The notes under the pieces are model-generated. The model did no database searches. It was given only the letters and a program-made list of their open reading frames with translations, and had not been told where the DNA came from. A stretch of 64,000 nucleotides of DNA from contig NC_057753.1 in the NCBI RefSeq assembly GCF_004010195.1, positions 13,009,446 through 13,073,445 on the forward strand, written 5' to 3'. This stretch comes from Chiloscyllium plagiosum. Taxonomy: Eukaryota. The position numbers were made by a program, and so were the translations under genes. Positions 16,591 to 53,600 of the stretch are shown here, piece by piece. Positions within the stretch are counted from its first letter, which is position 1. The number at the start of each line of letters is the position of its first letter.

Positions 16591-18061
16591 CTATGCATCT
16601 GTGATTACATTCTTATGACCCAGAACATTTATGACTATTAAATTAAAAGTCTGCAACATAAGATTCCTCGTGGTCCCTGTCTTGTCTTCAAACCGTTCTA
16701 AGAATGTAAGAGGAGAGTGATCCTTGCACAACACCGTCTCTGACACATTGTTCATGACATGCATATTAAAATGTCGTAAGGCCAGTACCAAACTCAATAC
16801 TTCTTTCTCGATTGTGGAGTATTTCCTCTGCTGGATGTTGATCCTCTTCGAAAAGTAACCAACTGGCATATCAATCCCATCTGCATCTTCCTGTAGGAAT
16901 ACAGGTCCAAATCCTAAGTCACTAGCTTCGATCATAACTTTCGAAGGTTTTGAAAATTTTGGTGTAGCTAAACTAGTTTGATGATTAATCTTGATTTCGA
17001 ATGTTCGAATGCCTCCTGGCATTGTTCTGTCAACCGAAACTTTGTGTTCTTTTTCAGCAAATCGGTTAATGCTGCCTGAATTGCTGTGCTCTTCCAGCAC
17101 CACTGATTCAGAATCTGGTTTCCAGCATCTGCAGTCATTGTTTTTACCTAATAGTGCTACTATACTGCTGAAGTTTTGAACATACTTCAGGTGCAATCCG
17201 CTGAGTCCTAAGAATTGAAGCACCACTTTCTTCGAGGTTGGTCATGGAAATTCCTCGACAGCTTTCGTCTTTGTTTTCCGTGGGGTCAACTATTCAAGTG
17301 AAATTTTAGGTCCTCTGAACTTCACATCTGCTTTGCGAATTCAATTTATTTAAGTTTATCACCAACTTTGCCTCCTGTAGTTGCAAAACATCTCTGCCAA
17401 CTCTAACGGGTGATCTTTGCAGGACTTACTGAAAATCACTACATCGTCCAAATAGACTGCATGGTTTGTTAACCAAGCAACAACTTTGTTGATTAGTCTT
17501 TGGACGGGTGCGTTCTTCTTTCCAAAGGGCATCACTTAACACTGGTACAGCCCATTTTGGATTCACAAACATAGAAATTTCTTTCAACATCTTGGATAAA
17601 GGTACCTGCCAACAACCACTTATTAAGTCCAAGTTGGTGATGTTACTTGTCCAAATTTCTCGATATAGATCTCCAATCTAGGAATTGAATCAGCGTCCGT
17701 TTTTTTTCAGTGGCGTCGACATTCCAATACCCCTTGTAGAAACCTTGAGTCCCTCTGGTTTGGGAACTAAGACGACCAGTGAACTGCATTCGCTCTGGCT
17801 TGGTTCGATGACTTCCTCGTCGAGCATGGTCTCCACCTCCATTTGAACTTGTCTGGCTTTGAAAGGATTAAGTCGATCGTGGTATGGTTTTATCGGAGCA
17901 GTATTCCCTACGACTACTTCATGTACAATTAATTAGACATCCCCATCTGATTGAAACATATATTTTTATATTGAGGTAACAAATTTTTCAAGTGCGTACT
18001 GTGCTCATGAGACAGGTAGTTGAACCCACTTCAACCATTGAACCCTACCCCCTGCCAGAGC
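16591..18061 (-). mobile_element. Gypsy (Gmr1-like) pol remnant, RT followed by RNase H
   Basis: DLISGCWQVPL (RT) and ASDLGFGPVFLQ..PVGYFSKR..YSTIEKEVLSLVLALRHF..DHSPLTFL..GHKNVITDA (RNase H), with frameshifts. A short Penelope-terminal insertion sits at about 17000-17150. Confidence 0.88.
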
Positions 18062-18679
18062 TACCTTAGCATGCCACAACAGGAAGCGCAAAGCCTGCGC
18101 CCACACGACTACACTCACCTCCTTCTAAGGCCTCAAGGGATACTTCCACAACCGTCAGAAATTCACCTGCACCTCTCCCATTGTCATTCACTGCATCTGT
18201 TGCACCCATCGTGGTCTCCTCTATACCGGCGAGACAGAACGCCTTCTTCTGGATCATTTCAGAGAACATCTTTGGACACTCTCACCTACCAACACCACCG
18301 CTCCGTGGCTAAACACTTCAGCAACCCCTCCCACTCCGTCAAGGACATGCAGATCCTGGTCCTGCTCCACTGACAAACTGTTACCACCTGATGCCTGATG
18401 GAGGATGATATATTGCATGTTTGGGGGATGATATATTGTGATGGGAAGGTGAGGATTGGGGGTTCTGTCCTTGTTGCTCTGGCAGGGGGTAGGGTTCAAT
18501 GGTTGAAGTGGGTTCAACTACCTGTCTCATGAGCACAGTATGCACTTGAAAGATTTGTTACCTCAATATAAAAATATATGTATAAATCAGATGGGGAGGA
18601 CTAATTAATTGTACATGAAGTAGTCGTAGGGAATACTGCTCCGATAAAACCACACCACGATCGGCTTAATCCTTTCAAA
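17858..18679. repeat. 204-bp inverted duplication (17858-18061 / 18476-18679)
   Basis: The arms align end to end. The ORF track shows MNPLQPLNPTPCQS on both strands. Confidence 0.92.
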
Positions 18680-19775
18680 TTCCGCCTTGGGACCCTGCAA
18701 CCACACGGGATAAGTCCGGATTTCAACAGCTTCCTTATTTCCCCTCCTCTCACATTATCCCAGTCCCAAGCTTCCAATTAGGCACCGCCCTCTGGACCCA
18801 TCCATTACTGCCCTCTCTGACCAAGGGGTTCCTGTCAAGAACCTCACCTTCCACACCACCAACCTCCGCATAAACTGCAGCATCTGTTGACATTTTCACC
18901 ACCTACAAACGGACCCCACCACCAGGTATATATTTCCCACCCCACCCCTATCCACTTTCTGCAAAGTCCGTTCCCTCCGTGACTATCTGGTCAGGTCCAC
19001 GCCCAACAACCCACCCTCCTCTCCTGGTACCTTTCCCTGCCACCACAGGAATTGCAAAACCTGCGTCCACACCTCCGCCTTCATGTCCATCCAAGGCCAC
19101 AAAGGAGCCTTCAACATCCATCAAAGTTTCACCTGCACATCCACAAATGCCATTTAACGTATCTGTTGCTCCTGATTCGGCCTCCTTTACACTGGAGAGA
19201 CTGGACACCTTCGCACAGAGCGCTTTAGGGAACGTCTCCCGGACACACGCACCAATCAACCCCACCACCCCGTAGCCGAAGATTTCAACTCCCCTCCCAC
19301 TCTGCCGAGAACATGCAGGTCCGGGACCTCCTCTACCACCACTCACTCACCGCCCGACGCCTGGAGGAAGAACGCCTCATCTTCTGCCTCAGAATACTTC
19401 AACCCCACATCATCAGTTTGGACTTCACCAGTTTCCTCATTTTCCCTCTCTCCACCTTACCCCAGTTCCAGCATGCCAGCTCAGCACCATCCTCATCACT
19501 AATCCTACCTGCCAATCTTCCTTCCCACCTCTCCAACCTATCACCTTCATCCCCACCTCTATCAGCCTATTACACTCTTAGCTACATTGTCCCCAGCCCC
19601 ACCCCCTCCCATTTACCTCTCGACGCTGCAGGGTCCCAGCCTCATTCCTTGTGAAGGGCGTTTGCCCTAAACGTCGATTTTCCTGTTCCTGGTTGTTGCC
19701 TGACCTGCTGTGTCTTTCCAACACCACTCTAATTTTCACTCTGATTTCTAGCATCTGCAGTCCTCACTTTCGCCT
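18062..19775 (+). mobile_element. Nested Penelope-like element fragments (GIY-YIG region plus terminal repeat)
   Basis: Two related copies, at 18062-18400/18680-18820 and about 18825-19775. They carry VAKHFS, RRLEEERLIFCL and the terminal gaagggc..gccc.aaacgtcga motif. Confidence 0.8.
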
Positions 19776-19779
19776 TATC

Positions 19780-20400
19780 TTGAGATGATCCCAAGTTAGA
19801 ACTCCCAGGTCTCTTTCCACTTCAGACTTTTGGATTTTCCCCCCATTTACAAAATAGTTCATGCTTCTATTCAATTATCAAAGTGCATGACCTGCAAATT
19901 TACTACTTGCACTTCATTTGCCACTTTCTGCTCACTCTCCTAACCTGCCGAAATCCTGCTGCAGCCTCTCCGTTTCCTCAATGTTACCTTTCCTACTGTG
20001 TATCTTTGCACCATCCTCAAACCTAGATAGAATAATATTTGTTCTTTCATCTAGATCAATAATGTACAGAGTGAAATGCTGTGTTCCCAATACTGACCCT
20101 AGCGGAATACCACGTGTCACAGACTGCCATACTGACAAAGCCTCTTTTATCCCCACTGTCTGCTTTCTCTGAGACAGCTAATCTTCCAGCCATGCTAGCA
20201 GCTTGCTTCTAACGCCATGGGCCCTTGTCTAATTCAGCTGCCTCTTGTTTGGCATCTCATTAAAGGCCTCCTGGAATTCTTTGGTCTAACCTACTCATTA
20301 CTTCCTCAATGAATTCAAGCAGAATTTTCCGGCATGACCTCCCCTTGTTGAAATCATACTGACTTTGCCATATTTTACCATACGCTTCCAAGTATTCAGA
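19780..20400 (-). mobile_element. CR1 LINE RT fragment
   Basis: WQSVTRGIPLGSVLG..YIIDLD..LQQDFGRLGE. Confidence 0.8.
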
Positions 20401-20499
20401 AATCTAAACCTTCAAAATAACATCCGACATGTAAACCACATTTACAAGCATGTTATTAGGAGTAGACGCTTCAAGGTGCAAGAAGAGGCTCGCTATGAC

Positions 20500-20900
20500 G
20501 AGACATTTTTCCGCTGGAATGTAGGAGTTGAGAAGAGACCTTACAGAGGTTTACGAAATTATGAGGGGCGTGGATAAGGTGAAGTGCATAGGTAGATGAA
20601 TTCTACCCGATAATACATATTTTTAAATTGAGAGGGCAACATTTAAAAGGGACGTTAGGGGTGACATTTCCATCCAGACGGTGATGCGCATATGGATGCA
20701 TCGCCAGAGAAAGTGTCAGATGCAGTTACATTCAAAACATCTAAGAGAGATTTGGACAGCTACATGAATAGGAAAGGTTCTGAAGGATTTGGTCAATTCT
20801 CAGGCAAATGGAACTTCTTTAGCTTGGAAAATCTGTTTGGCATGAACAAGATGAACGAATGGTTTGCATCTGCGCTGGTTGGCTCCAGGACACTAAGCTG
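20500..20900 (+). mobile_element. CR1 LINE 3' end
   Basis: FKTSKRDLDSYMNRKG and a typical CR1 3' tail. Confidence 0.7.
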
Positions 20901-21440
20901 AAGGGAGAGGCATTCTTTGCGCTGGAAACGCTTGGTTATAAAAATAGACTCAATCAAAAAGAGGAACGGCAAACGAAAACAAAAAGTATGTTTTCGAATA
21001 TTCGTAGGGCCTTTGGAAATGTGAACTTATTGCTTAAGGGTGGACAAGAACAAAAACCATCTGATTTGTTTTTTCTTTCTTACCCCATCACATGGTGCCA
21101 TCTTGCTGATTTGATACTGATGATTGGGAATCAAAGTCAGGTCACATATGTAGGGAAGATGTGTTTTTGCAAAGCTTTTAATTCATGAAAAGATATGTAT
21201 TCCCGAATCATATTCATCGATTAAGGTCTGACTTTTGTCAATATAAAAGGAGCAGAGGAAACTTTCTTCAGTGTTACACTTTTTACTTTTGGCTTATTAT
21301 GTATTTGGATACATTTCAAATTTCTGATTTTGTTCCGAAAACATTTAGGAATTCCATGTTTCTCTGCAATCTTATCCTGACTCTATTCTTCCCGTACGCC
21401 CCACCCCCACCATTCAATGCAATTGGTCACTTTGCATCAG

Positions 21441-22000
21441 AGTTTTCGAACGAGGCTCCTCTTGTTTTCTGCCACTATGTCTCTCAGTCCGCAGTGATAC
21501 ACCGCGCTGACAGACAGTTGCAGCTGACTAACGGTGATATTTCCCTCACTTTTCGAAATGTCCGGACACGAAAATCGTCGAGTCCCTACGCCCTTTGCTG
21601 TGAAAGGATCTCCGTAGTTAGGGAGTAAGTGAAGAATTTTCGCGCTTTGCTGCGGTACTGACGGTACAACTGTGAAGAATATAAACTCAATGCAATCGAG
21701 TACTTGAAGGTAATTGTCACTAAGTCTTATTTGAACTTTTTGTTGCAGTCAATAACTGCGATACTGACTCTGCACAATTAGCATCTTAAGAAATGTGGTA
21801 AGAAACAAAATTTAAGTGATACATTCTCACTTTATTCGAACCATGTCTAAAAGGTGCGAAAATACTTTGAAAAGGAGGAGAGCATTTACAGGGAAGATTA
21901 TCATGTCGATATCATGTACCAACAACATTTTGGCACTTACTGAGCTTACTGATTAATACATCTGCAGCTATCATCAATACATAAAATGTTAGGCGATCGC
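21441..22000 (-). pseudogene. TCR alpha V segment pseudogene (leader + V exon + 23-RSS)
   Basis: Leader LTFYVLMIAADVLI with donor GTAAGC (21949-21944). The exon from 21784 reads ANCAESVSQ / VTITFKYS..QLYRQYRSKA / ITVSQLQLSVSAVYHCGLR. RSS: CATAGTG (21479-21473), 23 nt, TCGAAAACT (21449-21441). Confidence 0.85.
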
Positions 22001-22814
22001 GTGTGCTGAGTAGATCATAAGTTTGAAGTTGTGTAGTCTCCACTCAGAGATGCTTGTGAGTTTGAACACTTCAAGCTGAAGCTGAGGAAGTTTCAGAACT
22101 GATGTTCTGTGCTTTCCGGTCTTATTGCTGAATGGTTCTTCTGTGTAAGTGTCTTCAGGCGGCATCCAATCAGATCAAGCTGTTTTGTTCTCCGTTCATG
22201 AAATCAGAGAGTTCGTCAGTGAACCTTTGAATCTACTCCGTCTTTCAACCAGATCTTGTTCAGTCCACCAAACATTCACCGTGCCGTACAACTCCCACAT
22301 TCCTTATTCCCTTTAAGATTCACTGGTCTGGCAAAATGACTGCAAAATAAAGTCAAGTGACAATGGCTCTTCTCTGATATACTGAATTTATCTGAAGCAG
22401 GTACATACTGTAATTCTGAGAATTTAACAGAGTCTGTCACTAATCTGTGCCATTGTTGAGTGATAGTTCATGCCGTTGTAGTAACAGTGCCATTATCCTC
22501 TAATTAGAACCTCGCTTGCCGACCATGCACGACACTTGCAACGAAAGTAGAGGGATTTTATGCAGAACACAAACATTATGAAGTACACAAGGAAATCGTT
22601 ACGGACAGCTATCCCCTGAAGTGTGTTTTTGATTGTTTGAAGAGTAAACAGTACTGTTCATAGACCTGAAAGTTTGTGTTGGGGGCACAGTAGAGTAAAA
22701 GTGCTAGGTCTGTTTTTTTCCCAGAGTGTCGATAGCTCTCTCGCAGTGTGATGCTCAGTGAACAAAAAGGACAGCAGCAGCAGCAGCGATCTTTAGATGA
22801 ACTGTTCTGTTTTA

Positions 22815-24165
22815 CAGTCACAGAGTCACAGAGATGTCCAGCACAAAAATTGACCCTTTGGTCCAACTCGTCTATACCGACCAGATATCCTAACCTAATC
22901 CAGTCCCATTCCCAAGCACTCGGTCTGCTTCTTTCTAAACCCTTTCTATTCATACACTCTCCAGATTCCTTTTAAATGATGTAATTGTACAACCCTCAAC
23001 CACTTGCTCTGGCACCTCATTCCATGCAGGCACCGCCCTCTGTGTGAAGAGGTTACCTCTTAACTGCCTTTTACACCTTTCCCCTCACAACCTCAATCTG
23101 TGCCCTGGAGTTCTAGACAGTGTCACCCCAGGAAAAATACCCTGTCTATTTATCCTATCTATGTCACTCATGATTTTGTAAACCTCCACAAGGTCACTCC
23201 TCAGCCTCCGTTGCTCCAGGGAAAATAAGCCCAGCCTATTCAGCCTCTCCCAGTAGCTCAAACCCTGCCACCCTCGCAACATTCTTGTAAATCTTTTCTG
23301 AATGCATTCAAGTTTCACAACATTCTTCGGATATGAAGGTGACCAGAATTGCATGCAATATCCAAAAAGCGGCCTAACCACTGCCCTGTACAGCAGCAAC
23401 GTAACCGTCCAACTCCTTTACTTAATGGCCTGAACAATAACGGAAAACATGACAAATGCCTTCACTATCCTATATACCCGCAACTCTACAAAGTTTCTTT
23501 GTTGTAAAACACTCCCCAGGGCCTTACCATTAAGTGTGTAACCCCTTCTGTGATTTGCTTTTCCAAAATGCCGCACCTTGCATTTATTTAACTTAATCTC
23601 CATCTGCCTCTCCTCAGCCCATTGGCCCATCCGATCAAGATGCCGTTGTACTCTGAGGTAACCTTCGTCACTGTCGATGGCCACTTCAATTTTGGTCCCA
23701 TCTGCAACCTTGCTAACTCTTCCACGTATGTTCACATACATCTCATTTATATACTTGACGAAGTTCGTGGACTGAGCACTGACACTTGTGACACTCCACT
23801 TATCAGAGTTCTCCAGTCTGAAAATCAACCTTTCACCACTACAGTCTTTCTTCTACCTTCGAGCCAATTCTGTATCGAAATAATTAGTGCTTCCTGTATT
23901 CCATGAGACCAAACTTGCTAACCAGTCTTCCATGGGGTCCTTGTGGAACGCCGGACTAAAATACATGTAGATCATGTCAACTGCTCTGCCATCATGAATC
24001 CTCTTCGATGCTTCTTCAGAAAATTCAATCAAGTTCATAAGACATGATTTCACATGTACAAAGCTATGCTTACTATCCCTAATCAGTCCTTGCCTTTCCA
24101 AATATATGAAAATCTTCACTGTCAGGATACCCTCCAACAACGTGCCCAACACTGATGTGTTCAAA
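22815..24165 (-). mobile_element. CR1/HER1-type LINE, 5'-truncated
   Basis: ORFs 23853-24164, 23418-23828 and 23085-23399 carry KSCLMNLIEF, LYRAVVRP and LGLFSLEQRRLRSDL. The 3' tail ends near 22815. Confidence 0.9.
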
Positions 24166-24775
24166 GTAACTGAAAGCCAGTCTGAGATATCTGGGGACTT
24201 ACCAGCTCTTTTTTCCCTGTCATCTCAGTAAATATTTCGGAACTTCCGTGGAAAACTGAATGCACTAGAAACCTGATGATGTATTGTATTTTGCTGGGTA
24301 ATTACAGTTCAGAACCTGGTCTCTCCTTTCTCAACCATTATTGTAATTATATTCCAGGAAACTGAATCTTGGTCACGCATTTCTGCAAGAAACACGGTGG
24401 AAGGTGTCTAAAATCTGTATTGTAACTGATGAAATGCACTTTGACGAATTTAACTCAGACTCACCGGTCAGCACATTCATTATTCTCAGCAAGGCACACT
24501 CGGAACAAATGGCTTCAGGTTCGACAGTGAATCGCCCACTTCTTAAAGTATTTTCATGCTCCTGATACCATATTAGCGACTGAACCCAAATCAAAATTGG
24601 CTTCAATTACTAGGAAATTCAGGGTTGATTTCCTTGTTTCGATTGGCTGGTCTCCCTGATATTAACAATATACCAGTTGTAATTACTTCACAGCTGATTG
24701 CAGTTGACTCTCTCCAATCATTTATGAAATATCTTTATGTCTTTCTCACCCCACCCCACCCCCTCGTATTTTCAG

Positions 24776-25130
24776 ATGTTAAATCAGTTCTGACTAACTG
24801 TGGGTTTTGGGTGGGAAACGGATCCAGAAACCATTATAACTGTAAAAATGATTCATTGACTCACACTGATCTTCTCGAAAACATGATGAAGAGCAGCAGT
24901 CCGTCATTCGACCATGCTCCTCCATTTCTGAATATAACGACTACTCTGATTATAGCCTCAGCTCTTCTTGCCTGTCTCGCCCCAGAATATGCTTCTCCCT
25001 TATGCATCATGTCTCTATATAAATCCACCATGTGTATATTGAGTGGCCCAACCCAACTAGTCTGAGACAAATGAATTCCAAAGACAAACGACACACTGAC
25101 AGCGGAAGAAAAACGTCCTCAACTCATTCA
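24776..25130 (+). pseudogene. Possible very degenerate TCR V segment
   Basis: Donor-like GTAATT near 24679 and acceptor ttttcag at 24775, with NCK and DHAPPFL remnants. CACACTG near 25092 is followed by 23 nt and a poor nonamer. Confidence 0.3.
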
Positions 25131-25315
25131 AATGGAAGGGCAGTGGTAATTTTAAAAGTTTTACCTCTCGTTTCAAATACGCCAAAATGCAATACCATTC
25201 TCTGAGAACCCATAGGTTCATGGCTGTTGAGGATGTTTCACGTGTTTCAGAAAATGCCGCTCATTCTTCTCACTGTTTTAGCTCTTCACCTGGCGCCCCG
25301 ATTAGAATGTGAGAC

Positions 25316-25811
25316 AGTTTTTCTACTGGGCACCAGGATTCTCATTCACTGTGGGACTCAGTGCACATTAATACACAGCGCTATCTGTGAGTTTTAAATC
25401 TTGCATGTACAACTGAAAAAAGTCTTGTTCCTCGTTGAGATTCCCAGTTACGTATCCAAAACGTGAAGCCTTATCATTTTGTACATAACTATCGAATCTG
25501 AGCAGGTATTGAGGAGCTTTCTGTGGATACTGGTGATACCAGAGCAGGCCATAGCCTCTTCACATACCAAGTTAAGTGCAGCTTAAATTTGAATCTTCAC
25601 CCTTTACTGCTTCACATCCTTGTTCTGACTGGGACACTGAGTATCCATTACTCATCTGAAATTGAACAGTAAACACACAATTGAGACACCATGAGAAAGA
25701 AATAATCGCCTCAAAATTGAATTGGAAAATACAATATGAACTTGGGTGTATTGACTGGAGATTCAGTTTGACTGTGACCAAGAAAACAACCACTATCAGG
25801 CAGAGTTTCAA
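25316..25811 (-). pseudogene. TCR alpha V segment pseudogene, best preserved in the window
   Basis: Leader KLCLIVVVFLVT lacks an ATG. The exon from 25655 stays in one frame: SNGYSVSQ..GEDSNLSCT*..*..LLWYHQYPQKAPQYLL..LKLTDSAVY*CALS (3 stops). RSS: CACAGTG (25353-25347), 22 nt, AGAAAAACT (25324-25316). Confidence 0.92.
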
Positions 25812-25895
25812 TCCGATTGCTCCCGACTGATCTCCAGATGCAGAGACAGCATTCAGGGTCCGTACCAGATCTGGAATTGCAGAAATTGAAAAAGG

Positions 25896-25916
25896 CCAAT
25901 GACGTTATGTGATTGG
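25896..25916 (-). promoter_or_regulatory. CRE-like and CCAAT motifs upstream of V leader
   Basis: TGACGTTA (25900-25907) is flanked by CCAAT/ATTGG, about 90 nt upstream of the leader. CRE-like sites are typical of TCR V promoters. Confidence 0.35.
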
Positions 25917-26674
25917 CTGGGAATTCATTATGCTGCCCAATTTTATGTTTTCATGCACCCATTTTCTGTCAAAGGGGATACTCGGATCTTCAGTAAGTGA
26001 TCAGAGCGTCCCCTATTATGCCCAGAAGAACAGCTTTGGCACAATCTCAGACATAATTATGTACACAGTGACAGAGACAGACAGACACATTCATGCATAC
26101 GCAATCACAAACGCACATGCGCCCACAGACATTAAAAAACAAACTGACAGACAGATGTGTTACGGAAGATTTTGAAAGTGGTTAAATTGCATGTTTCATC
26201 TGAACAATATATCAGTATGAGTTAGTACCGATGTTGAATGTTTGTATCCCCGATTTTAGTTCTAATTCAAATCAGCAGGGATTTTCAGCCTCATATCCAT
26301 TGACTCCTGTTTGCGTGTGCCTCTTTATACCATACTCCATCAAATGCCTTCTTAAGGTGAAGGGAAATGGTTAGCACTTCATTTCTGGTATTTTGCAAGT
26401 TTGGAAAAAGAATGCCATAAGTTCAGGAGACGAATGTATCTGGTGGAACACAGCTGAGCATCATCTTAAAGGCTAGCAGACCCTTTAAGAGGCTTAGGTG
26501 TATCAACAATCGGCAAAACATGGAATTGTTCAGTCTCAGACGGCCCAATATCTTGTTCTTCTCCATCTAGTGAATCTTCCTCCTGTGAGCAGACCTATTT
26601 AAGACATTTTCTGTACGTGCGGAGTTCAGGTAAGTGATACAGCACTTTTCTTGATTTCAATGTCACACGGTACA

Positions 26675-26980
26675 TTCTTTCAGCAATGATGAGTCTTCTC
26701 CAGTTACTCAGTTTCTGAAACAGCGGTTTCATTTATATGCTAACCCACAACACGTTCGGTGAGGAATTGAAGAAGTCGATGCTATATTCACTTTATTAGA
26801 ATAACGAGGGTATCTAATCCACGAATGACAAACAAGACATAATATTCATATATTGATACTTCACGCCAGAGTTTTGGAGTACACAGAAAGCTCTCTCAAA
26901 TCAAATTCAAAAAGTTTGTATTTCGAATCCTCACTCTCAGGCAGCGTGATACTCCATGGTCCAGACTGTGAAAATACTGG
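26675..26980 (+). pseudogene. Possible very degenerate TCR alpha V segment
   Basis: SNDESSPVTQ start (tttcagcaatg, as in the V at 57902), YSLY* at the Trp position and an SSLSGSV.. F-strand remnant. An upstream donor GTAAGT lies near 26630. Confidence 0.33.
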
Positions 26981-27783
26981 AGTGTAAGAGGCGAGGCATT
27001 TTTGGATGAGTTGCTACATCACCATTTGCCTTAAAACTCTCAAATAGAAAGTAAAATGTCACATTGTCATGCTTTCCAAAAGAGAATATGGTTAAGCATC
27101 TGCAACAAATGTGATTATGATCGTGAAACTTGAGGCATTTACTTTGCAGGTTTGTGCTTGAGGGTGGCTTTGGAGGGTAGATGTGGAGAGGATGTTTTCT
27201 CTTATTAAAACGTGTAAAACGAGAGGCCGCTTTTTAAAAGTGGAGTGATGTCCACCTGTAACAGATGATATGTGTCGTTCTTATTTTCTCTTGGCCAGTA
27301 ATAAGAACTTATGCCCTGAAGAGGTGATAGAAGTAACGTCATTGAATGTTTTTAAAGGAACAAGCAAATATTTTACTGTTAAACAAGTGGGTGAATGATG
27401 AACCTGGGCTAAACGGGAAGGCTACGTCTGGTTCCAATCAGATCAGTCATGATTTCATTTAATAGCGAAGCAGACAAGAGAGGTCAGATGGTCTAGCCCT
27501 GCTCATTGTTCAAATGCTCCCTCGTTCTCCTCTCAGAGAGTATCTGTACAGAGTGATATACCACGGTGTAAGATAGTTGAGGGTCCGAGATGGTAAGTCA
27601 CATTGTTCCCCACTTGGCACTATTCCATGCACGGTGTAATGTTCATGGAATTTAAACTGCAACTCAGAAGGAGGACTCCCCGAATTCAGGTTTACAGTCA
27701 AAAAGGGAGTTTCATGTGAACACGCCCCCCAACTTGTCATAAACGTATTGCTTCTCAGTAAGTGCTTCTCAATAATAAAATTA

Positions 27784-28290
27784 ATGCAAGGTTTGTGAAG
27801 GTTTGTAGCTCAGGTTGAGGTTTAGGGTGCAGATTTGCTCGCTGAGCTGTAGGTTTGGTATTCAGATGTTTCATTACCTGGCTAGGTAACATCATCACTG
27901 GAGGACCCAAGTGAAGGGAAACTGTTGTCTCCTGCTTTCTATTTATATCTTTCTCCTGGATGGGGTTTCTCGGGTTTGTGGTGGTGTAATTTCCTGTTCG
28001 TTTTCTGAGGGGTTGATAGATGGCATCTAGACCTATGTGTTTATGGCGTTGTGGTTGGAGTGTCAGGCCTCTAGGAATTCTCTGGCATGTCTTTGCTTAG
28101 CCTGTCCTAGCATAGATGTGTTGTCCCAGTCGAAATGGTGTTTTGTTTTCATCCGTGTGTCGGGCTACAAGGGAGAGAGGGTCGTGTCTTTTTGTGGCTA
28201 GCTAGTGTTCGTGTATCCTGGTGGCTAACTTTCTTCCTGTTTGTCCTACGTGGTGTTTGTGGCAGCCCTACACACGGATGGAAAAAAAAA
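27784..28290 (-). mobile_element. Penelope-like element 3' fragment (same family as 976-1483)
   Basis: Near-identical to 980-1365 over several hundred bp. Confidence 0.88.
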
Positions 28291-28291
28291 C

Positions 28292-29373
28292 AAATCATAT
28301 ACTGATGTGCGTAGATAGGAATGAACATTCCTCCTTGATGGTCATATGATTAACCAAATAATATACCAATATGGTAAGGGTGAGAAGCTTTAGGAGGATT
28401 TGAAAGGAAAATATATCTCAGAAGGTGATGTGAATCTTGAACTCACCGTCTTAAATGTGGAAGGTTCCAAAACCCTCATAACATTTAAGAAGTATTAAGA
28501 TGTGCAATTGCGATGGAAAAGCAATTTTTGGGTGGGAAGGGCTCATGCCCGAAACGTCGATTCTCCTGCTCCTTGGATGCTGCCTGACCTGCTGCGCTTT
28601 TCCAGCAACATGTTTTCAGTTCAATTTATTCAATCTTGACTTGAAGACAGTATTACTGAAGCATAAAAGAACATGTTATGAAATGATGGGGAGATTTGAA
28701 TGATTTAATAAAAATGGTGATACTAAAGCAAGAATGTGCAGATATAAATAATTTCTTTTCCAGGGAAATCCAACAACTTTCCAGGTGGGGTTCATGGAAG
28801 TGAATCAGTGGCAGTGATTGTGTTTGCTGATTGTTCAGATTGCGAATGTTACTATTCCCATTAATCTCCCTGCTAACAGAACTATATTTGATGTGAGTCA
28901 GTTGCCAATATTAACAATTGGATCAATGATGCAATGAATCACTTTTTTTGCCCACTAATCACGAGACTGTAGGTTTGACGCCTCAGTTGTGGATTTCTAA
29001 TACAACATGTTTCTGTTACGTCACTCTCTGAGCAAACTAACCTTACCACTAATATTCTTAGAGTCATAGAGGCCTGCAGCACAGAACATAAAAGTGTTCT
29101 GAACCATCAGCTTTGTACTTACGTAAAACCCCACCAAAAATTGTTTTTACATCGCAATTGCACATCTTAATACTTCTTAAATGTTATGAGGGTTTTGCAA
29201 CCTGCCACATTTAAGACAGTGAGTTCAAGATTCACATCACCTTCTGAGATATATTTTCCTTTCAAATCCTCCTAAAGCTTCTCACCCTTACAATATTGGT
29301 ATATTATTTGGTTAATAATATGACCATGAAGGAGGAATGTTCATTCCTATCTACCCACATCAGTATTTGATTT
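28292..29373. repeat. ~244-bp inverted duplication (28292-28536 / 29130-29373)
   Basis: The arms align with few mismatches. The left arm lies between two Penelope-derived pieces. Confidence 0.92.
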
Positions 29374-30071
29374 CTTATGCCTTACTTAAACCACTTGACC
29401 ACAAGCCCAAACTCTGATCTGTTGTGCCGATATTTTAGACGTTTCTGTTATTCAATTTTTTTTTCTGTGTTTCAAACTGTTTTCTTTTTCATTCTTTCCC
29501 CCAGGACCTAAAAATATTTATATGTGCAGATATTAAAGCGATCTTGCTTCGAATAAAGCATAACAATATTTAAAGTCCAAGACCTACAAGGATTTTCAGC
29601 GAGGAATCGGTTGGAAATAACCTGCAGAGGAATAATGTTACACTGACGCTGGATACTGAAATAGTGCTAGAAACAAATTTAATATGATCCACAGGAAAAC
29701 TGCAGATTGTAGGAATTCAGAATTAAAGTCATCCCCAAAGTCAAGGCTCCACTAATTTCTTTTCGAGATGATCAATCAAAACAGAATGCAAATAAGCAGA
29801 GAAAAGGTGTTCCCTCGATGCACACGAAACACCAACATTCAAGTGGACGCCTGAATGCGCCGCAGACACTAATAATTCAAATGCTAATGACAAGCCTTTG
29901 GACTCAAAAGTTAAATCTGCTTTCTCACCACAATGCATCCAGACCTGATTAGTTTCTATAGCAATATCTGTTTTTTCTTCAGATAAGTCACATATTGCAT
30001 GACGCCCAAAAGCAATCAGTGAATTAAAATTTCAGATTGCCCCTCCTGGAAGCGCAGTTGTCTTCTGTCTG

Positions 30072-30402
30072 CTTTTCTGTTTTAAAAATAAAAGCTGGAC
30101 CCTTCATTGTGGAGACAATGGATTGATCCCACCTATTGCAGACGCATCCATGTCACCGGGAACCACCTCTCCAAAAATTGGGACTGTTCCCCTTCGAACC
30201 TTTCAATGTCTAGGCTCCAGCCAAGTTTTTTCACTGTCCCGAAGCTGAAATAAGATCAGAAATTCTGATGAATAGGAACGAGAATCATTTCAATGTCTCT
30301 GATCAGTTCATGTCGCTGAAGCCATCAGAGTCAATGACCAAGCCTCTTACAGAAAGGGAAGGTGCTATAACTGCCTCTGCTCCGTCAAAAGTTGCATGTG
30401 TC
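30072..30402 (-). pseudogene. Possible degenerate V segment
   Basis: Acceptor precedes 30402 and the 291-nt exon has SLTL, SEFLIL and VVPGD remnants. RSS-like: CACAATG (30111-30105), 24 nt, ACAGAAAAG. Confidence 0.35.
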
Positions 30403-30646
30403 CTGAGATGAGGAAATTTAGTTCTGTGCAGAGATTCTCGAGGCTACAAGGTGAGCAAGGTGAAACGGAGTTTTCTTGGGGTTGTTTGCAATGAGGGGGT
30501 TGGGAGCGGTGGGGCGGGTGGCTTGGTGCAACAGTTGGGTCAAAACTGTTTCCATTGACCGGTGTCAGTAGGGCCAGTTGCCAGAGGAATGTTTTTGAAA
30601 GTATTTAATGACGAATAGGTTTGCATTTGTACAACATGAACATGCA

Positions 30647-30868
30647 AAGTTTGTGAAGGTTTGTAGCTCAGGTTGAGGTTTAGGGTGTAGGTTTGCTCGC
30701 TGAGCTGTAGGTTTGATATCCAGACGTTTCATTACCTGGCTAGGTAACGTCATCAGTAGCGACCTCCAAGTGAAGCGAAGCTGTTGTCTCCTGCTTTCTA
30801 TTTATATGTTTGTCCTGGTTTGGGTTCCTTGGGGTTTTGGTGATGTCATTTCCTGTTCGTTTTCTGAG
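30647..30868 (-). mobile_element. Penelope-like pLTR fragment
   Basis: Matches 27784-28010 and 980-1168. Confidence 0.85.
30718..30761 (-). ncRNA. Minimal hammerhead ribozyme motif (Penelope-associated)
   Basis: Reads gcta-CTGATGA-c-GTTACCT-agcc-AGGTAAT-GAAAC-GTC-tgg, with an intact catalytic core, a 7-bp stem II and a palindromic ACGU helix III. Confidence 0.72.
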
Positions 30869-31959
30869 AAAACGTGGGTGCGTTTAAAGGGATTTTCCGT
30901 TTTGTTTTCAGTGGTCATTTTACCAGCAGTAATTCATTTAAAAACCATAATGTTTGAAAATGGAGTCATAAGGATTCAAACCTGAGCAGGAAGCCCTGTT
31001 TTCTTTTAACATTGCAATTGCCTGCAACAATTGGCAATGAGAACAACATTGCTGCGAATTCGACAATGTTTGTGCAGGCAAGGATTCTTTTCGGCTCGTC
31101 CTGTCCATACCATGGCCCGAACGTTGCCTGTCATCCTGCAATTGACCAGAAAAGAAGAATCTGAGGGGATCTGTAGTTAAGTAGTGTCCGAGAGAAAAAA
31201 GTAGATGGGAAGAATCCATTTCAATGTACAAAGAAGTAAGTAATCAAGGTGCAGGCTCGAGAAAGGAAAATGCCCTTGTATTTATCTAATGCCTTTCACC
31301 ACAACCTGAATTCAAAATGCTTCACCGCCAGTTCCTTTCGTTTGAAGTGAAATCGGATGCAAACTTTTCCAAATATTTCTATCCCTGCAGACATGCGCAG
31401 ACCATATGAGCATTTCCAGCATTTTTTGTTTGTATTGATTTGAATTTAGACTGAGAGATATCTGGCCGGCTCTTCTCTGTTTGTAGGGTTGATATTGATT
31501 TCCACAATGTTGTCGTCAAAACGTTCGCTTTAAACGTGACGTTTCCTACATTCCCCTATGTGGTGCTCGATGTTTGAATTGTTCCATTGAAATGACAACC
31601 TCCTGGTATATTCACTGACCTCCTCCAGAAGTCGCCGTTACAACTATGGAATCTGTGGTTCAAACGTTAAAACAAAAGCAAGAAAAGAGAATGCTGGTGA
31701 AACTCACTAGATATACCCCCGCTCTCCGGAGAGTTAAACAGAATTGACGTTTCCAGTCCGATATGAATAGAATTCAGAAATTCGATAATCTTGAATTCAC
31801 GAATGTCGAATCACAATTTCTGGAGGAGTAGGAAACAAGGAATCTCTCATTGTTTACAGAACTGTTCGGAATGTATGCAACTTGTGTTCACTCGAGTAAG
31901 TTAATTATTTAAATCAAAACAAACTGACGAGAAAATCCTGGAAATTATTGGATTTGAGG

Positions 31960-35957: not shown

Positions 35958-37911
35958 CTGTAACAGAGAGAGAACGTCACAAGATTAAAATGATACTGGT
36001 GTGATTCTGAACAGAGTCGTTTAATTTTGCTGATTTTGTTTCATATTTATACACATCAAACTAAAATCAAGCATCCCTACAGCTTGCAAACAGACATCTG
36101 GCCCAATGGGTCCAGAATGAAACACCAAAGAACACCTCGCCAAGTGCCATCCCCGTACCCTCTCCTTGTGATCATGTATTACCCATAGCTAACGCACCTA
36201 ACCAACACTGCGAGTGGTCAACCCACCTGACTTGTATATCTTTGAAAATAACACCATTAGATTTAAAGACTTGATTCATCATTGTTCAATGTAAATTGTG
36301 ACTTCGTGAAAGAAAGGTTGTTGAATGATTATACAAAGTAGTCTTCATTATAATTACCTGCATTAAGAAGATAACTTTGCTAGAGAACTGGATTTCTCAA
36401 ACAATTACAAAAGAAAATTGGATACACATTCTGAACAACAAACGAACATCGAATAATTCAGAAATCAGTAAGGTGGGGGAGTTTTCTTAAATTGAGAAGA
36501 AAGGATTAGAAAGGGCAAGAAGGACAACTTCCTTAAATTAAATTTCCAGAAGGTTGCTGTGTGACTTTAGATAACTCAGTCGGAGCAGAGTATGGTCTTC
36601 CACTCAGTATCCCTGACTGAAGATGGAAATGCTTCAAATTGCATTTTTCTCAAAAAAATCCCCAAAGAGAGAAGTAGAAGAGATAAATATCGCCTTTCTC
36701 CAACTTCATGTAAGGCATGATGGGTAGAACTCAGTGGTAAATCCGACATCATCAACCAATAATCAAAGAGACTGTTTGGTGCTTTGCAACACTATTGTAT
36801 GGAGACGTTATATTTGGAGGATGCACTCCTCCAATGCAATAATTCCTCCATGGTACAATGTGACATTGGGCAAATGATCTGTCTTCCCCTAAATTATATA
36901 TTTAGAAGAAGAAGGTGCCGAACAGATGGAGCTTTATTACTCATGACATAGATTATCAGGGCATTGTACTGAACTTTGGTTAGGTCATAGCTGGTGTATT
37001 GTGTGCTATTCTGGTAACAACAGCAAGATACAGGATATAGTGGGTATGGGTGGAGTTGCAGATATAGGATAAACAAGTTTTTAAAAAGCATATCTGGTGA
37101 TAAGCAGGCATATTTTTGAAGAATCAGCAACAGTCAATGCGGAAATGGAAAGCCGGAGAGAGGGTGATTGAAAAGAAGGGGGAAAAAAACCACTGTGCCT
37201 TATCAATTTGGAAATACTGCAAGTATCCATTCTTTGTCAGCTGAGAAATGCTGATGTACTTTTCGAGAACTCAGAGTGTAATATTACCTGATTAATAAAT
37301 GAATCAAATATAATCGATCATGTTTGGTCAGTGACTGAAGTTTTTCAATCACTGAAAATGTTTTGTGTGTTATTCCACTGCTGACTCTCACGATAATTCT
37401 ACATATACATAGTGATCAAAATTTGAAAATACAAGCCGCTTATCGGAGTGAGTGACTTATTAGAAAGTAATTAACACAATGATGGGAATTTGGCAATTTA
37501 ATATAAGTGCATTATTGATGCACAATAAACGTACAATTTTGCCATTATAATTTTTGTTAGTTTGCGCACAGTCTACTTGAGAGAAACATCATTGAACTAT
37601 TCTCTGGCTGTTGTATCACAATATGATGCTAGTCTAAGAATTAAATGAGTTTTAGCAATGTCAATAAGACATAGTGCTACAATGACGCAATGCGATGGTG
37701 ACATAACTTGGCAGAAATACATAACGTGGCAGAAATACATAACTAAAGCAAATCAAATGTTACGTGCTTTAGCAAAACATTACAGACGTGAAGAATAAAC
37801 ATGAGTGAAAAATATAATGTAACGATGATGGTATACGGAAAAAATTGCATTGGCAAATCTAAGACATTCCATTATAAATATAGAGAGGTGCAAGATTAAA
37901 TAAAGATATGT

Positions 37912-39120: not shown

Positions 39121-39190
39121 CTGGAACACCAATTATTGCAATGGCAGGATAGTAAATTGCAAAGATCACACCTGACGGTATTCCGTGCAT
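39121..39190 (-). CDS. GPR139/GPR142-like GPCR, exon 1
   Basis: ATG at 39190 gives MHGIPSGVIFAIYYPAIAIIGVP, followed by donor G|GTAAAG at 39120. It supplies the missing first half of TM1. Confidence 0.9.
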
Positions 39191-39539
39191 CTTTCTCAGA
39201 ATTCCTGAGTGCACGCCACAATTCATTGAAGATGTAAGCGTATTTATTGCTGCTATCTTGCTCTTGGGACTTAATTAGTTGTTTCAATTATTTACATGCA
39301 TGAAATTTTATTTGTGCAGATGATTATTGCAGCTGCCTCAGATGGAGATAATGTTGTGTTGTCATGTCCTGTGGTGAAGTCACTTTCTGTTCTTTTTCTC
39401 AGGGAATGGTAGATGAATTCCATCTCGATGTATTATGGGATCTATCAACAAACGCATCGAGTCAGACGCCCATGTACCACCCCCTGAGAAAAAGAACAGG
39501 ACGTAACTTCACCACTGGAAATGACATCACCACAGGAGA

Positions 39540-41789: not shown

Positions 41790-42420
41790 AAGAAGTCAAA
41801 TAGGATACTTACATTTCTACGCTGAAGCATAAAGCTTAAGAGCAGAGACGTGATACTGGAGCTTCATGCAAAGTAATTTGGGCACAGTTACAGAATTATG
41901 TGTGGTTCTGACACCCACATGTACAACGGATTTGTTTGCCCAGACGAGGGAGCGAGCGAGGTTTCCTGCGATGTTACGTGAAGTGGAGTTGTTTAATTAT
42001 AAAGAGAAAATGGACAGACTGGGGTTGTTATTTTTAAATAGAAGAGACTGAGAACGAGAAACAATTGAAATGTTTAAAACTCTGAGGTTCACAGACGAGC
42101 TCGACAGGTCAGTATTTATCCACTCACAGGAGTGATCAATGATTGGGCATACAGTTGAGGTAAAGTTTTGGACGATTAGAATAGATGAGAGGTAATTGCA
42201 TTCACTCAGATGTTGGTGGATTCTGGTACTCACTGGCTATAAAGGGTGGCAGATTCGGAAACCCTGACAACATCTGAAAAAATTTTGATGTTCAGTTGTG
42301 ACGCCAAGGCACAAACGATCATGTGTTAATTGCTAGAAAATGGGAAAGAATACGCTTTTTTTAACCAGCACAGACTCAATCGACCGAAGGGCTATTTCTT
42401 TTGGTACTGTATACCGGTGT
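41790..42420 (+). mobile_element. Old CR1 LINE 3' fragment
   Basis: YKEKMDRLGLL remnant and a 3' tail. Confidence 0.65.
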
Positions 42421-48404: not shown

Positions 48405-48842
48405 CAAAGTTAAAAACCAAACACCAGCATGTTATAATCCATCAGGTTTAATTAGAATTACAAACTTTCAAGGGGCTGCTCCTTCATCAGGTAGGTATCG
48501 AGGCAGAATCATCAGACAGAATTTATGATAATAGTGTCATACGCCTTAGGTGATGCATTAAAAAACTAGATTTCTTTAACACTTCGAATGTTACAGATTT
48601 CGATGCATCAGTAGTTAAATCCCAAAATTTATTTCAAGTCACACTCCTGAGGTAACGTAACAGTTTATTTAAAATAGTTGATAGCTCAACTCAGACAATG
48701 TCTGATCCTGCCCCACTAGCTTCCTGATGAAGTAGAAGCACTCTGAAAGCTTTTACATCCAAAAAATCTGTTGAGCTACAAACTGGTGTTGGGCGATTTT
48801 TAATTTTGTCAACCACAGTCTAACACTGGCACCTACACATCA
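48405..48842. mobile_element. Penelope-derived foldback element with hammerhead cores on both strands
   Basis: Inverted termini with CTGATGA..GAAAG on minus (48490-48464) and plus (48724-48749). A related short copy lies at about 2742-2840. Confidence 0.65.
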
Positions 48843-49373
48843 AAATAATTACAAATATTGATGAGAATAGACTATTAATTAAACAGGCATTGTCAATGTA
48901 ATACAGAATGATGCGTCATACAGATTGGAAACATTCGGCTCTAATTTAATACAAAAAGAGAAATGATCCAACTGAATACGAACACCAGCACATTCGAGTT
49001 TAATATAAACGGAAATAGAAACAAGTGTAATATAAATAAACATAGGGTCGACCGTAACATAAATCGAAGCAAATTCATTTGAAATAGCGGCAATAACGTT
49101 GCATCGTTCAACACTGGTCGACACAACGTCTGGCGTAAGAAAGGAAAACATGTCAACATTCAGAGAGGACGACAAATGTGTCGCAAGTTATATAAACAGA
49201 GGGATGAGCGATTGAAGAAGTAATTGAGTCAGTCACAGAAAGTATCTAGTGTAATAATTGATTGGACTATTTAATTTAGCACGTATCCAGGGCACTTATG
49301 TGAGTGGCAGTGTCAGAGCTCTGTGTGTGGAGAATGGGCTTCAAGTCCTATCTGTTCCTGAGGTGTGTAGTGT

Positions 49374-49676: not shown

Positions 49677-52144
49677 ACAAGTAGGTGTGCCTATTAAAGA
49701 CACATATGCTGTTGTGATAATGATTCGGGGGGTGAACTATTAAGAGACAAAGAGTAAGAGTATCACAATAGTCAAAACACCTGTCAAAGCACTTACGCAG
49801 GCAGAAGGTAATTACCATCAAGGTAATAAATATGCAAATAATAGCACAGAACAAAAAAGATTTTGCCAATGAGATACAGCTATCTCTGCTCACAAAAATC
49901 CATATTTCGTCACTCCCTTGTGTTCTTCCTACAGCATAGAATATTAGACGTTTTTGATGTTTAGAACAATAAAATATAGAAACATTCACAGCAGGAAAGT
50001 AAACCCCTCTGACCATCGGATCTATGCTGGCTGAGAAAAGAACCATCAAATCAAATTCCATTTGACAATATGTGTTCAATGAACTTTGAGGTTCAGTATT
50101 TATGGTGTTAGTATCTTTGCTAAACAGGTTATCAGCTAATGTCTCTTTCGTCGTTTCAGGTTGAGTTTTCCAAACCATATACAACGTCCAGTTTTTTTAA
50201 AAAAAGAAAATGTTCACTCTACGCTAAACGTTTTATCAATAACTATTAACCTATGAAATTCAGTCACTGACGTGTTAAGCAAGGTAAATCCATCCTTCAA
50301 CCCATTTTATCCAGGCCCCTGAGAATCTTGAACAAGTCAAGAAAGCCTCCCCTAAAGCTCCTCATCATCAAAGAAAACAACTACAGACTCTACATACTTC
50401 CCCAGTGGCTTATTTTCCAGTCCTGGACAATCTGCATAAATACCGCTAATGCACTGTTGAGTGTCATGACAACTTCAGTAACAATGTGACGGTAAAGTAA
50501 TAACCAGGACCTAGTGAGACATCATCAAAGATCAAAATTTAATCACGAGTTTCTACACAGTTTTATTTTAGGTCAAATGGCGTTTCACAACTGTGTTAAA
50601 GATTTTGCTTAGTTACATGCTGAGCTGTGAAGTATTCGACTGGGATAAAATAAATAAATTGAAATGGGACAGACCTTTTTTTTGCAGAGTGGAAATCACC
50701 ACAAGCTTTCCATGCATCTGAAAATGATTGAGTGGTAATTTGCTCTTAGCAATTGGCATCATGTTGAGTTTTTCTCTTTTTATGAAGACACTTATGTTTA
50801 CAAGGACATTGGTGCCATTTATTTATTTCCCTGATCTAGGAATTCAAATCTTTGGACTTTCAATCAAAAATGGATATGGTATTGACAGTCCAAGAGCCTC
50901 CCATGATCTCATTAGTTTGGCCGCACATATTTATCACGAGACCAAGGGATCTTACAATCCATCCCATTAATTTACATTCCCATACTGGCAGTTATGCTCC
51001 TTATCAAATTCTATTATTCATTTTATATTTCCTAGTGACCTTGTCACAGGAGACATAAAAAGAGTCAGTTAATTCGTAATAATTACTATAACATTCATAA
51101 TATCAGTTACAACATAAAACTACATACTTATTCAATTATATGGCGACATCTAATTTTGGAATGCTTTAGCCAATGAGATATGATCATTTTCTGCCCCACC
51201 TGAACTTATAATATCAAACAAACACTATATCTCTAACTTGTTGCTGCAAATATAACTCTTTCTATCCACACACTATCTTTAGGTGCATTTTAAATAGGCG
51301 ATTGCTTTAACGGCGGAATTTACTGTCTCTAACTATTTCTACACTAACTACTTTCCTTAAAAAGATGACGCTTATTTAAATTCAAAGCAAGAAAGAAACT
51401 CAATAACTTCCCCAGCTTTGGAGACTTGTCTGAATTGCTAAAGTGTTTAAAAAAAAATCTCTGCCCTTCCCACCTTAATCCTTGGGCTTAAGAATGGTTA
51501 TTTGCGTTGTGAAGCTGCCATTGTTTATTTTCACGAATTCCAGCTGGTGACCATTAACGGGTTATGTGCATGCCCATTGGTCTGTCAGTCCCCCTTGCCG
51601 AGGGAATAATGTCTGTTTATAGCCCTCTGTTTTAAACAATTGCAACCAAATTTCTTAACGTTCAGTGTAGACTCCTTTCTTAATTTATCCAATCTCGATA
51701 ACCTGAAGATTCCACGCTGTTTTAGGATCATGCTATTTTTTTAATTCTGGCGAAAATACAGACTTCGGACTGTTTGTTCCAAACATTTCCGAACATGCTG
51801 CCACTCACACAGATCAGCATATAGAATTTTCTGTATTTTACTTTAAAACAATCTTTGTTCATTCTGTTACCCTGGAATAATATTTTCCTCAAAGCTACCA
51901 TTGTCGTCACTTAGGGAATTGTTCAATTCTGAACTCAGAAAGTTACTTCTGCTGCTATGGGTAAAAGAATGTTTTACCGCCATATCTATGCAAATAAAGA
52001 TTGACAAGCAGCTACCTTGTGCCACTTCTGGACTTGGGCTGTCCCAACATGCACACTTACCACCACTTTCTTAAATGAACAATGAAGGGACGTAAACCAA
52101 AACGAGATGGCAATTTATGGAGATAATACTAAAATTGAGACATT

Positions 52145-53600
52145 TTAACTGTCAGAATGTATAGGGGTGGGTAACATTCTCTGATAACGAGAAGATGAAA
52201 GGATAACTTTACTGATGTCTGTCCGATAGTGAAATCTCTTAGCTTCTGAATGCAGAGATGGATGTTCCTCTTGGGGTATGCACTGGATTGTATGCGTCCA
52301 TTCAGGTTGACCTTTGGCCATGACGGCTGTATGCATCTCTACGAGGACGAGGTATGGGTTCCCTCCCCTCCCCCAGTCCCCCGTGAATGTAAACTTTGAA
52401 GAGTATTAGTTAACTTATGTAGATATTTCAATCTTGTCTAGCACTGTTGTGGCATTAGTCTCAGTCATTGGGATGGTTCTCATTCATTTATTAAATGCGT
52501 ATACCATTATTAGACAATATTCATCACCTTGTACTGGAGTGAATTCTGTAAAATCAAATTGCAGCAAACTGAAAGAGCTCACCAGCAATAGTGTGTTTCT
52601 GGAACCCTCTTTGCCCTTATGTGTACAATTATGCAGCTAAACGGTTAAAATATGCAGGAGGAAAGAACGAACATAAACTTGTTCCACATGGGTCACCCAT
52701 AGCTTCGTTTGAGTATTGAGGGAGCACACCATTTGCATCCTTTTTTATGCTTTTCAGTCGGGGACTCACCTGTGATTTCTGTACGTTACCAAGCTCTGGC
52801 ATACCCGTCCTTATATTGTCTCCAACCAGGTTTTCCTCGAACCCAAAGGGACCAGATGTTCGGTGTGTAAGGTTGCCTGCTTGGGGAGGGAACCCATACC
52901 TCGTCCTTGTAGTGACCCGTACAGCCGTCATGGCCAAAGTTCAACCTGAATGGACGCATGCAATCCAGTGCATACCTCAAGAGGAACATTAACCTCTGCA
53001 TTCAGAAGAAGGGCTTATGCCCGAAACGTCGGTTCTCCTGCTCCTCGGATGCTTCCTGGCCTACTGTGTTTTTCCAGCACCACATTTTTCAACTCTGGTA
53101 CTCCAGCATCTGCAGTCCTCATTTTCTCCTGCTTGGCACCAGCACCTACCCACTCACTCTCTACGAAGACTGTATCAGTTGCATCAGCGTGAACTGAATA
53201 TTTGATAACTGCCAGACTGGTTGGACAAGGCAGCGTTACTAAGAGGCTATAGCGTGGAGTTTAAATCCTCCATGTTCTCACACGGCTCCATAATAGTGGG
53301 CCACGTCAAAAGCACAACAGGAGTGTTTCTTTTTTTCAGATTTTCCTTTCCGGATAATGCAAGCATGCTGATCCTTGCATTAGTTAAAAGGCAGCAAGAA
53401 GGGCACTTTGCTCCTCAGTGGCCATATTTCCACTGTTAAAGTAAATGCCTGCCATTTGTCCCTGGGAGATCTTCACAGTGCCAAAGTTGTAGCACCAGTG
53501 TGTGTCTGTCTGCTTTCCAAAGTCCCTAACTGAAGTGTTGCTCAGTAGTGGTCGCTGGGCGGGGATTTTATGGTAGGTTCTACCGTAGTGGGTTGACTGG
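52145..53600 (-). mobile_element. Endogenous retrovirus pol remnant (RNase H and integrase), internally deleted and rearranged
   Basis: Minus strand has AFDVAHYYGAV*EHGGF and LAVIK (RNase H), LQFDFTEF..YCLIMV..NATTV (integrase core) and TAVMAKGQPEWTH (integrase C-terminus). Confidence 0.8.
52243..53008. repeat. 126-bp inverted duplication (52243-52368 / 52883-53008), abutting a Penelope terminal fragment at 53005-53130
   Basis: AVMAK.QPEWTH.IQCIPQEEH appears on both strands in the ORF track. Confidence 0.9.

Follow-up and report, generated by a model that had tools for sequence, protein, structure and literature searches.

Inverted copies of neighboring DNA at and within Penelope-like elements in a 64-kb window of the Chiloscyllium plagiosum genome

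We analyzed 64,000 nucleotides of the Chiloscyllium plagiosum genome (assembly GCF_004010195.1, contig NC_057753.1, positions 13,009,446 to 13,073,445; hereafter the window), which contain pieces of Penelope-like elements (PLEs) and, at or within these pieces, short stretches of neighboring DNA repeated in reverse orientation. Self-BLAST together with a repeat finder verified three such inverted duplications (Table 1). The original prediction had treated them as a single recurrent mechanism in which Penelope insertions are fused to an inverted copy of nearby DNA; the pairs are real features with arms 0.4–0.6 kb apart, yet they are not one repeated event. Only case 3 clearly arrived together with its PLE piece, whereas case 1 was likely a later repair and case 2 is ambiguous.

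The PLE pieces of the window fall into two families. A query spanning 18891–19154 matched two proteins, P0001 and P0002 (2 of 25 candidates), which carry a reverse transcriptase (RT) together with a GIY-YIG domain at the C terminus. The closer of these two PLE reference proteins showed 75% identity, and its source label was bamboo shark. The RVT_1 (E 0.008) and GIY-YIG (E 2.5e-4) domains of P0001 were both under the Pfam cut-offs, whereas the GIY-YIG domain of P0002 was above its cut-off. Family-1 pieces matched the two proteins with E values of 1e-65 to 1e-19, and tblastn aligned the reference proteins to 18048–18774, 18843–19528, and 61376–61797, and weakly to 27962–28264 (E 0.004). Family 1, represented at 18020–19775, 28536–28622, and 53005–53129, can be classed on its predicted RT followed by a C-terminal GIY-YIG as an endonuclease-positive PLE. 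The same putative class is assigned to family 2 (979–1489, 27787–28263, and 30645–30868) from its GIY-YIG end, its inverted 5′-truncated copy, and its target-site duplication (TSD), on the basis of the weak tblastn alignment to P0001 and of the two-arm unit 979–1489 with its TSD of 11–14 nt. Each of the three family-1 modules folds into a hammerhead-like stem of 4 bp with GAAA after it; overall z-scores were null, and an Rfam search gave no matches. Family-2 copies match a hammerhead core pattern, and a scan of viral contigs for the family-1 motif found no loci. The two family-1 3′ modules differ by 9.8%, and both families are very abundant in the reads of three labelled organisms.

Table 1. 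Inverted pairs and surrounding features, in window positions
Feature	Position	Strand	Description
Pair 1 (case 1)	17858–18064/18473–18679		207 bp, 9 differences, 95.7%, spacer 408 bp
Pair 2 (case 2)	28289–28536/29129–29376		248 bp, 13 differences, 95%, spacer 592 bp
Pair 3 (case 3)	52243–52368/52883–53008		126 bp, 11 differences, 91.3%, spacer 514 bp
Case 1 native arm	17858–18064	.	~162 bp of decayed long terminal repeat (LTR) retroelement pol (minus strand) and first 45 bp of PLE1a
PLE1a, 5′ part	18020–18397	+	Old family-1 PLE, covering the last part of the RT region through GIY-YIG
Case 1 inserted reverse copy	18398–18679	-	~282 bp
PLE1a, continuation	18680–18818	+	Resumes PLE1a in collinear order beyond the insert (from P0001 residue 432)
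PLE1b	18819–19775	+	Second family-1 PLE; 18-nt micro-inversion of own sequence at 5′ junction
PLE2b	27787–28263	-	Family-2 fragment, GIY-YIG end and hammerhead-like motif (E 0.004)
PLE2b snap-back	28264–28292	+	29-nt copy of PLE2b's own 28139–28166, at PLE2b 5′ end
Case 2 inserted reverse copy	28289–28536	+	Reverse of 29129–29376
Case 2 family-1 3′ module	28536–28622	+	Begins inside hammerhead-like core
Case 2 donor	29129–29376	-	Old repeat, CR1-like by eye
Case 3 donor	52243–52368	-	In decayed retroelement-like remnant; integrase-like by eye, unconfirmed by tools
Case 3 left TSD copy	52876–52884	+	9 nt when two shared C are counted, 7 of them certain
Case 3 inserted reverse copy	52883–53008	+	2 nt common with TSD, 4 nt common with PLE module
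Case 3 family-1 PLE 3′ module	53005–53129	+	125 bp, hammerhead-like stem to 3′ end
Case 3 right TSD copy	53128–53136	+	

A more sensitive search for inverted similarity within 5 kb returned five hits above 100 bits in the window. Four of them have a spacer, namely the three cases and 978–1061/1381–1464, which is the inverted end of a PLE itself; the fifth is a palindrome at 39352–39534 that resembles PLE family 2. All four strong spacer-bearing local inverted repeats touch PLE DNA, and this search found no strong local inverted repeat outside it. The maximum in 20 locally shuffled windows was 44.6 bits. Above 50 bits, local similarity in direct orientation was PLE to PLE only, with no direct local copies of non-repeat DNA, and the orientation of the copies was inverted in 3/3 cases and direct in 0. 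PLE pieces, as bounded by self-similarity within the window, cover 7.2% of it. Under a rough placement null, two arm ends would fall no more than 3 nt from a PLE boundary with a probability of 1e-5, and all three cases would lie in or at PLE DNA with a probability of 4e-4, the latter figure being weak after correction for a window chosen post hoc among at least 234 of this genome. The six junctions share 0–4 nt, as examined with a polymerase-theta-type templated insertion in mind; this sharing is partly within chance expectation.

The clearest association was found in case 3, in which a 9-nt direct repeat precisely bounds the reverse copy and the PLE module together; no TSD was found around the PLE module alone. 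None of 992 random pairs showed an exact repeat of at least 8 nt within 2 nt, and with a looser 8-nt window 2 of 298 random pairs reached the score. The arms diverge by 8.7%, in agreement with the 9.8% that separates the two family-1 modules (p 0.41). Because the TSD encloses both arm and PLE, the flank copy was made during the 5′-side joining of this PLE, and reverse flank copy and 3′ module were inserted together. Case 3 has the form of a foldback inversion, in which the insert carries a reverse copy of the upstream flank at its 5′ end and a TSD encloses both, and it is the only one of the three cases in which a TSD encloses copy and element. The donor had been labelled an endogenous retrovirus integrase; this name was given by eye and found no relevant match in Pfam, PDB, or two protein collections. 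Matches to beta-2-microglobulin were attributed to chance (E 0.3 or worse). The surrounding interval 52100–54500 (minus strand) is a strongly decayed retroelement-like remnant split by the case 3 insertion, with pol-like motifs recognized by eye on both sides and no tool match.

Case 1 has a different anatomy. Its inverted arm was predicted to be joined directly to Penelope sequence, as those of cases 2 and 3 are, but the case 1 insert lies inside a PLE and not at a PLE end, and is therefore no foldback copy at an element 5′ end. Before the insert, reference residues 308–425 align; beyond it the alignment resumes at residue 432, so that 18 nt of PLE are missing there. The arm had been described as 204 bp of Gypsy pol; Pfam supported LTR-retroelement pol (RT_RNaseH, E 1e-18; RVT_1, E 1e-6), and part of the arm proved to be PLE. 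PLE1a lacks ~210 bp after 18064 through a deletion in the native arm, and the insert consists of the reversed pol piece, the PLE 5′ junction, and ~75 bp of PLE that are gone from the native arm; residues 28–55 of P0002 match the insert on the minus strand (E 0.04). The copy spans the PLE 5′ junction, so this junction predates the copying. PLE1a carries 19 differences at 70 residues on which the two reference proteins agree, corresponding to ~13% nucleotide decay. The arms differ at 9 of 207 sites (4.3%; 2.2% per arm), and the contrast with the decay of PLE1a was significant (p 1e-16), remaining so with the decay estimate halved (p 3e-5). No new complementary DNA (cDNA) accompanies the insert, and no TSD beyond the null was found around the whole or its parts. 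Given these ages and the copied 5′ junction, case 1 is likely several times younger than its host PLE and the result of a later break repair in an old element. A contig from a relative diverged by 5–6% aligns to 18396–18679 and continues with 41 non-fitting letters, which gives a hint of an undeleted native PLE junction of the template type.

In case 2, the copy is enclosed by two 5′ ends facing each other head to head, that of family-2 PLE2b before it and that of a family-1 module after it, with junction overlaps of 1–3 nt, and the donor lies 510 bp past the family-1 3′ module; the copied flank is thus upstream with respect to family 2 and downstream with respect to family 1. The inverted pair was correctly recognized in the original prediction, whereas its layout was not: the left arm represents the copy, with the donor downstream of the PLE 3′ module. 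The donor, whose CR1 label rests on motifs recognized by eye, has one other match in the window (42205–42301). Its native context is present in reads of other individuals or species, and in a relative, a contig with 31 letters on the PLE side carries the module 3′ junction together with the donor. With 13/248 differences, the arms seem somewhat younger than the PLE copies with their spread of 9.8% (p 0.007, untrimmed), but CpG decay and differences between subfamilies inflate this spread. A switch of template to local DNA at a PLE-associated break, as originally proposed, is plausible here and is supported in case 3 by the TSD, but is not supported for case 1 as a step of integration. A ribozyme-cut origin of the case 2 and case 3 junctions was considered and discarded, as family-1 5′ ends pile up near these positions anyway; each run contained ~950 contigs with loose ends before 28536 and 10 shared letters upstream. 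In run X9, contig depth was 170–190 over 29205–30568 versus ~10–30 elsewhere, which suggests that this interval is multi-copy in the organism of that run. In several contigs of all four runs, the family-1 3′ end precedes a family-2 end or another family-1 module (19771–19775 to 30686 and 28536), which may reflect abundance or target preference.

The arms differ at 4–9% of sites, by both transitions and transversions, and misassembly is unlikely because of this divergence, as the original prediction had already argued. An assembly artefact would agree with the scaffold gap at 8931–9093 and with the fact that the arm-to-PLE junctions were not seen among the contigs listed in a comparison of four of 24 sequencing runs with 16800–31100. 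It is nevertheless extremely unlikely in view of the divergence, of the case 3 TSD, and of the PLE sequence that the case 1 copy holds and its native arm lacks. Moreover, the changes at 29204 and 29292 are private to the case 2 donor arm of the window, and other runs carry the letter of the copy.

Independence from PLE activity would be a further explanation, with PLE DNA merely abundant, fragile, or attracted to hairpins. The extreme abundance of family-1 modules in reads, the PLE share of the window, and the younger age of case 1 and perhaps case 2 relative to their PLEs fit this view. We regard it as quite unlikely, because the case 3 TSD bounds arm and PLE together, two of the arm ends are no more than 3 nt away from PLE 5′ ends, and strong local inverted repeats outside PLE DNA were not found.

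The explanation that we favor, and hold to be probable with some reservation, is that the reversed arms are templated insertions made while a break was sealed, probably by the host end-joining polymerase. From the anatomy, TSD, collinearity, and relative ages observed here, we infer priming, extension, and joining as follows. A free 3′ end at the break would anneal over a few bases to DNA at a distance of ~0.5 kb; from there 126–282 nt would be copied by a polymerase, probably a host end-joining enzyme; and the extended end would be released and joined to the other side of the break. The break would be the PLE's own integration site in case 3, as indicated by its TSD, a likely later one inside an already old PLE in case 1, and, in case 2, either the point at which the family-1 module was joined on its 5′ side or a site between two older PLE stubs. 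The three geometries are compatible with a resected end simply folding back on its own strand, with loops of ~485, 592, and 514 nt, the first value being that of case 1 at the time of copying; such fold-back would account both for the inverted orientation of all three copies and for their similar distances. Which end primed and which enzyme copied cannot be read from the product. Host polymerases are favored because L1, R2, and plain breaks yield the same product and because case 1 has no cDNA. A 5′ inversion by twin priming was not found in the three cases, whose arms derive from flanking DNA and not from element RNA.

Several points weigh against fold-back repair as set out above. The loops of ~0.5 kb and tracts of 126–282 nt far exceed yeast fold-backs (5–34 bp), and no tool result points to a particular polymerase. 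In case 3 the cDNA side shows the better homology (4 nt without mismatch, and more if one gap is allowed), so cDNA priming fits as well as flank fold-back. No convincing TSD was found for case 2, whole or in parts (best 6/7 nt, within the null), and the case 2 copy may post-date its PLEs. Gene conversion could have lowered the apparent ages of the arms. None of the contigs listed from the four runs (>120,000 records per run, mostly repeat copies) crosses an arm-to-PLE junction within 16800–31100, and none of those listed for this range, which does not include case 3, represents an empty site. Two contigs run unbroken through the case 2 donor; they were not counted as absence of the copy, since contigs drop such branches. 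The contig from the 5–6% diverged relative also stops 3 letters beyond the outer edge of the case 1 arm, which is unexplained.

Own-sequence inversions were also found at PLE 5′ ends. At 18815–18837, the 5′ end of PLE1b carries an 18-nt inversion of its own RT-coding sequence that matches the left end over 4 nt, which fits twin priming. Head-to-head two-arm PLE units lie at 979–1489, 2745–2842, and 48405–48846, with TSDs of 11–14, 10–12, and 9 nt (one mismatch), and represent the usual inverted-end architecture of PLEs in at least two families. Decayed palindromes at 39352–39534, 13047–13192, and 5535–5648, the latter two adjoining family-1 remnants and the first resembling family 2, are probably old two-arm PLE stubs.

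These inversions bear on an alternative, the main reading of the original prediction, in which the PLE RT regularly leaves its RNA during integration and goes on to copy genomic DNA close by, since they include switches onto own sequence (29 nt at 28264, 18 nt at 18819, and the two-arm units with TSDs). In vitro, a PLE protein from a lizard cleaves both strands and extends them (PMC11167929), and the PLEs of rotifers have been suggested to self-prime (PMC3846280). The ~15 PLE units include one certain and one possible event, compared with ~4 among ~1,200 L1 insertions, which likewise points in this direction (Fisher p 0.06 for 1/15 and 0.002 for 2/15), with the L1 denominator derived from percentages in PMC10191854 and the comparison setting selected old germline copies from a post hoc window against new somatic insertions; the foldback rate may thus be higher at these PLEs than at L1. 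An RT jump is unlikely as the general explanation, as it leaves case 1 unexplained, where the copy is far younger than the PLE around it and no new cDNA is present. The nonsignificant contrast within the window between PLE pieces (3/16) and CR1-like pieces (0/13, p 0.23), the latter being probably older and located with seeds chosen by eye, and the occurrence of the same product with L1, R2, and plain breaks also speak against it. We consider it very unlikely that the RT instead switched onto neighboring nascent RNA of the minus strand. One such L1 event has been published (PMC10191854), and three donors that are minus by eye beside three family-1 pieces that are plus would give the inverted orientation; however, this explanation predicts neither the narrow distance of 0.4–0.6 kb nor inverted copies only, and it too meets no new cDNA in case 1.

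Extending fold-back repair to a general property, shark PLEs might copy ~0.1–0.3 kb of flank from ~0.5 kb away in ~1/10 of their insertions, tens of times the L1 rate, through long-lived resected ends left after both DNA ends are cut and primed, and might be a main source of short inverted host duplications. We put this forward as possible but doubtful. If true, the very high PLE copy number would lead to reversed host promoters and splice sites in shark genomes, and should such events be common, a highly abundant retroelement of sharks would also duplicate host DNA in reverse orientation. TSD-enclosed flank copies would be fossil intermediates of 5′-side joining in PLE integration that can be counted genome-wide.

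The original prediction had further linked the inverted duplications to the scrambled orientation of V segments in this region. We reject this link, because the events add ~130–280 bp and do not invert their flanks, case 3 keeping its TSD and case 1 keeping its PLE collinear. A pattern search located V-like segments of immunoglobulin or T-cell receptor type in opposite orientations at 57979 (plus) and ~63749 (minus), 5–11 kb from the nearest event, and a weak one at 59214 (minus); it detected no clear recombination signals beside them. Elsewhere in the window, an open frame of 309 amino acids at 35047–35976 (minus) resembles a seven-helix receptor by eye.

A literature search covering openly accessible main texts found no flank-templated inverted copy at PLE junctions. 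Endonuclease-positive PLEs themselves are described as carrying an inverted 5′-truncated copy or inverted pseudo-LTR (pLTR) (PMC8557442, PMC3846280, PMC4209133). The same elements form at least four such two-arm units in the window, three of them with TSDs; the inverted part is element sequence in the described PLEs, whereas it is flanking host DNA in the cases reported here. In Adineta, host DNA is captured between pLTRs, and the accessible text describes no inverted local copy.

Templated inverted insertions at breaks are known from yeast, where plain breaks yield microhomology-primed fold-back inversions that are mostly 5–34 bp long and adjacent to the break (PMC11724301), and from L1-induced ends, where three L1 insertions carried sequence templated from nearby genomic DNA (PMC11702581); these products fit case 1. 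The zebrafish LINEs ZfL2-1 and ZfL2-2 acquire flank-templated extra nucleotides at the 5′ end in a manner dependent on the host cell (PMC4245944, PMC4760211), but these fillers comprise several nucleotides, in contrast to the 126–282 nt from ~0.5 kb away observed here. In R2 snap-back, the cDNA 3′ end primes on the cDNA or, more rarely, on nearby target ribosomal DNA (Zhang et al., 2024; PMC11371274). The 29-nt PLE2b snap-back is similar, as are possibly cases 2 and 3, although the R2 insertions were engineered, site-specific, made in human cells, and snapped back mostly onto cDNA.

The closest counterpart is found among somatic L1 insertions, in which short foldback inversions of 52–220 bp from upstream of the target were observed in 3 events (0.3%) and 1 event (0.1%) and ascribed to extra DNA synthesis in final joining (Nam et al., 2023; PMC10191854). 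Case 3, with its reverse copy of 126 bp of upstream flank at the 5′ end and its TSD kept, is of the same kind; the differences are that a GIY-YIG PLE without poly-A is involved, that the insertion is germline-fixed, and that such events are possibly more frequent here. A type of junction known from L1 and R2 is thereby extended to PLEs, by one clean case.

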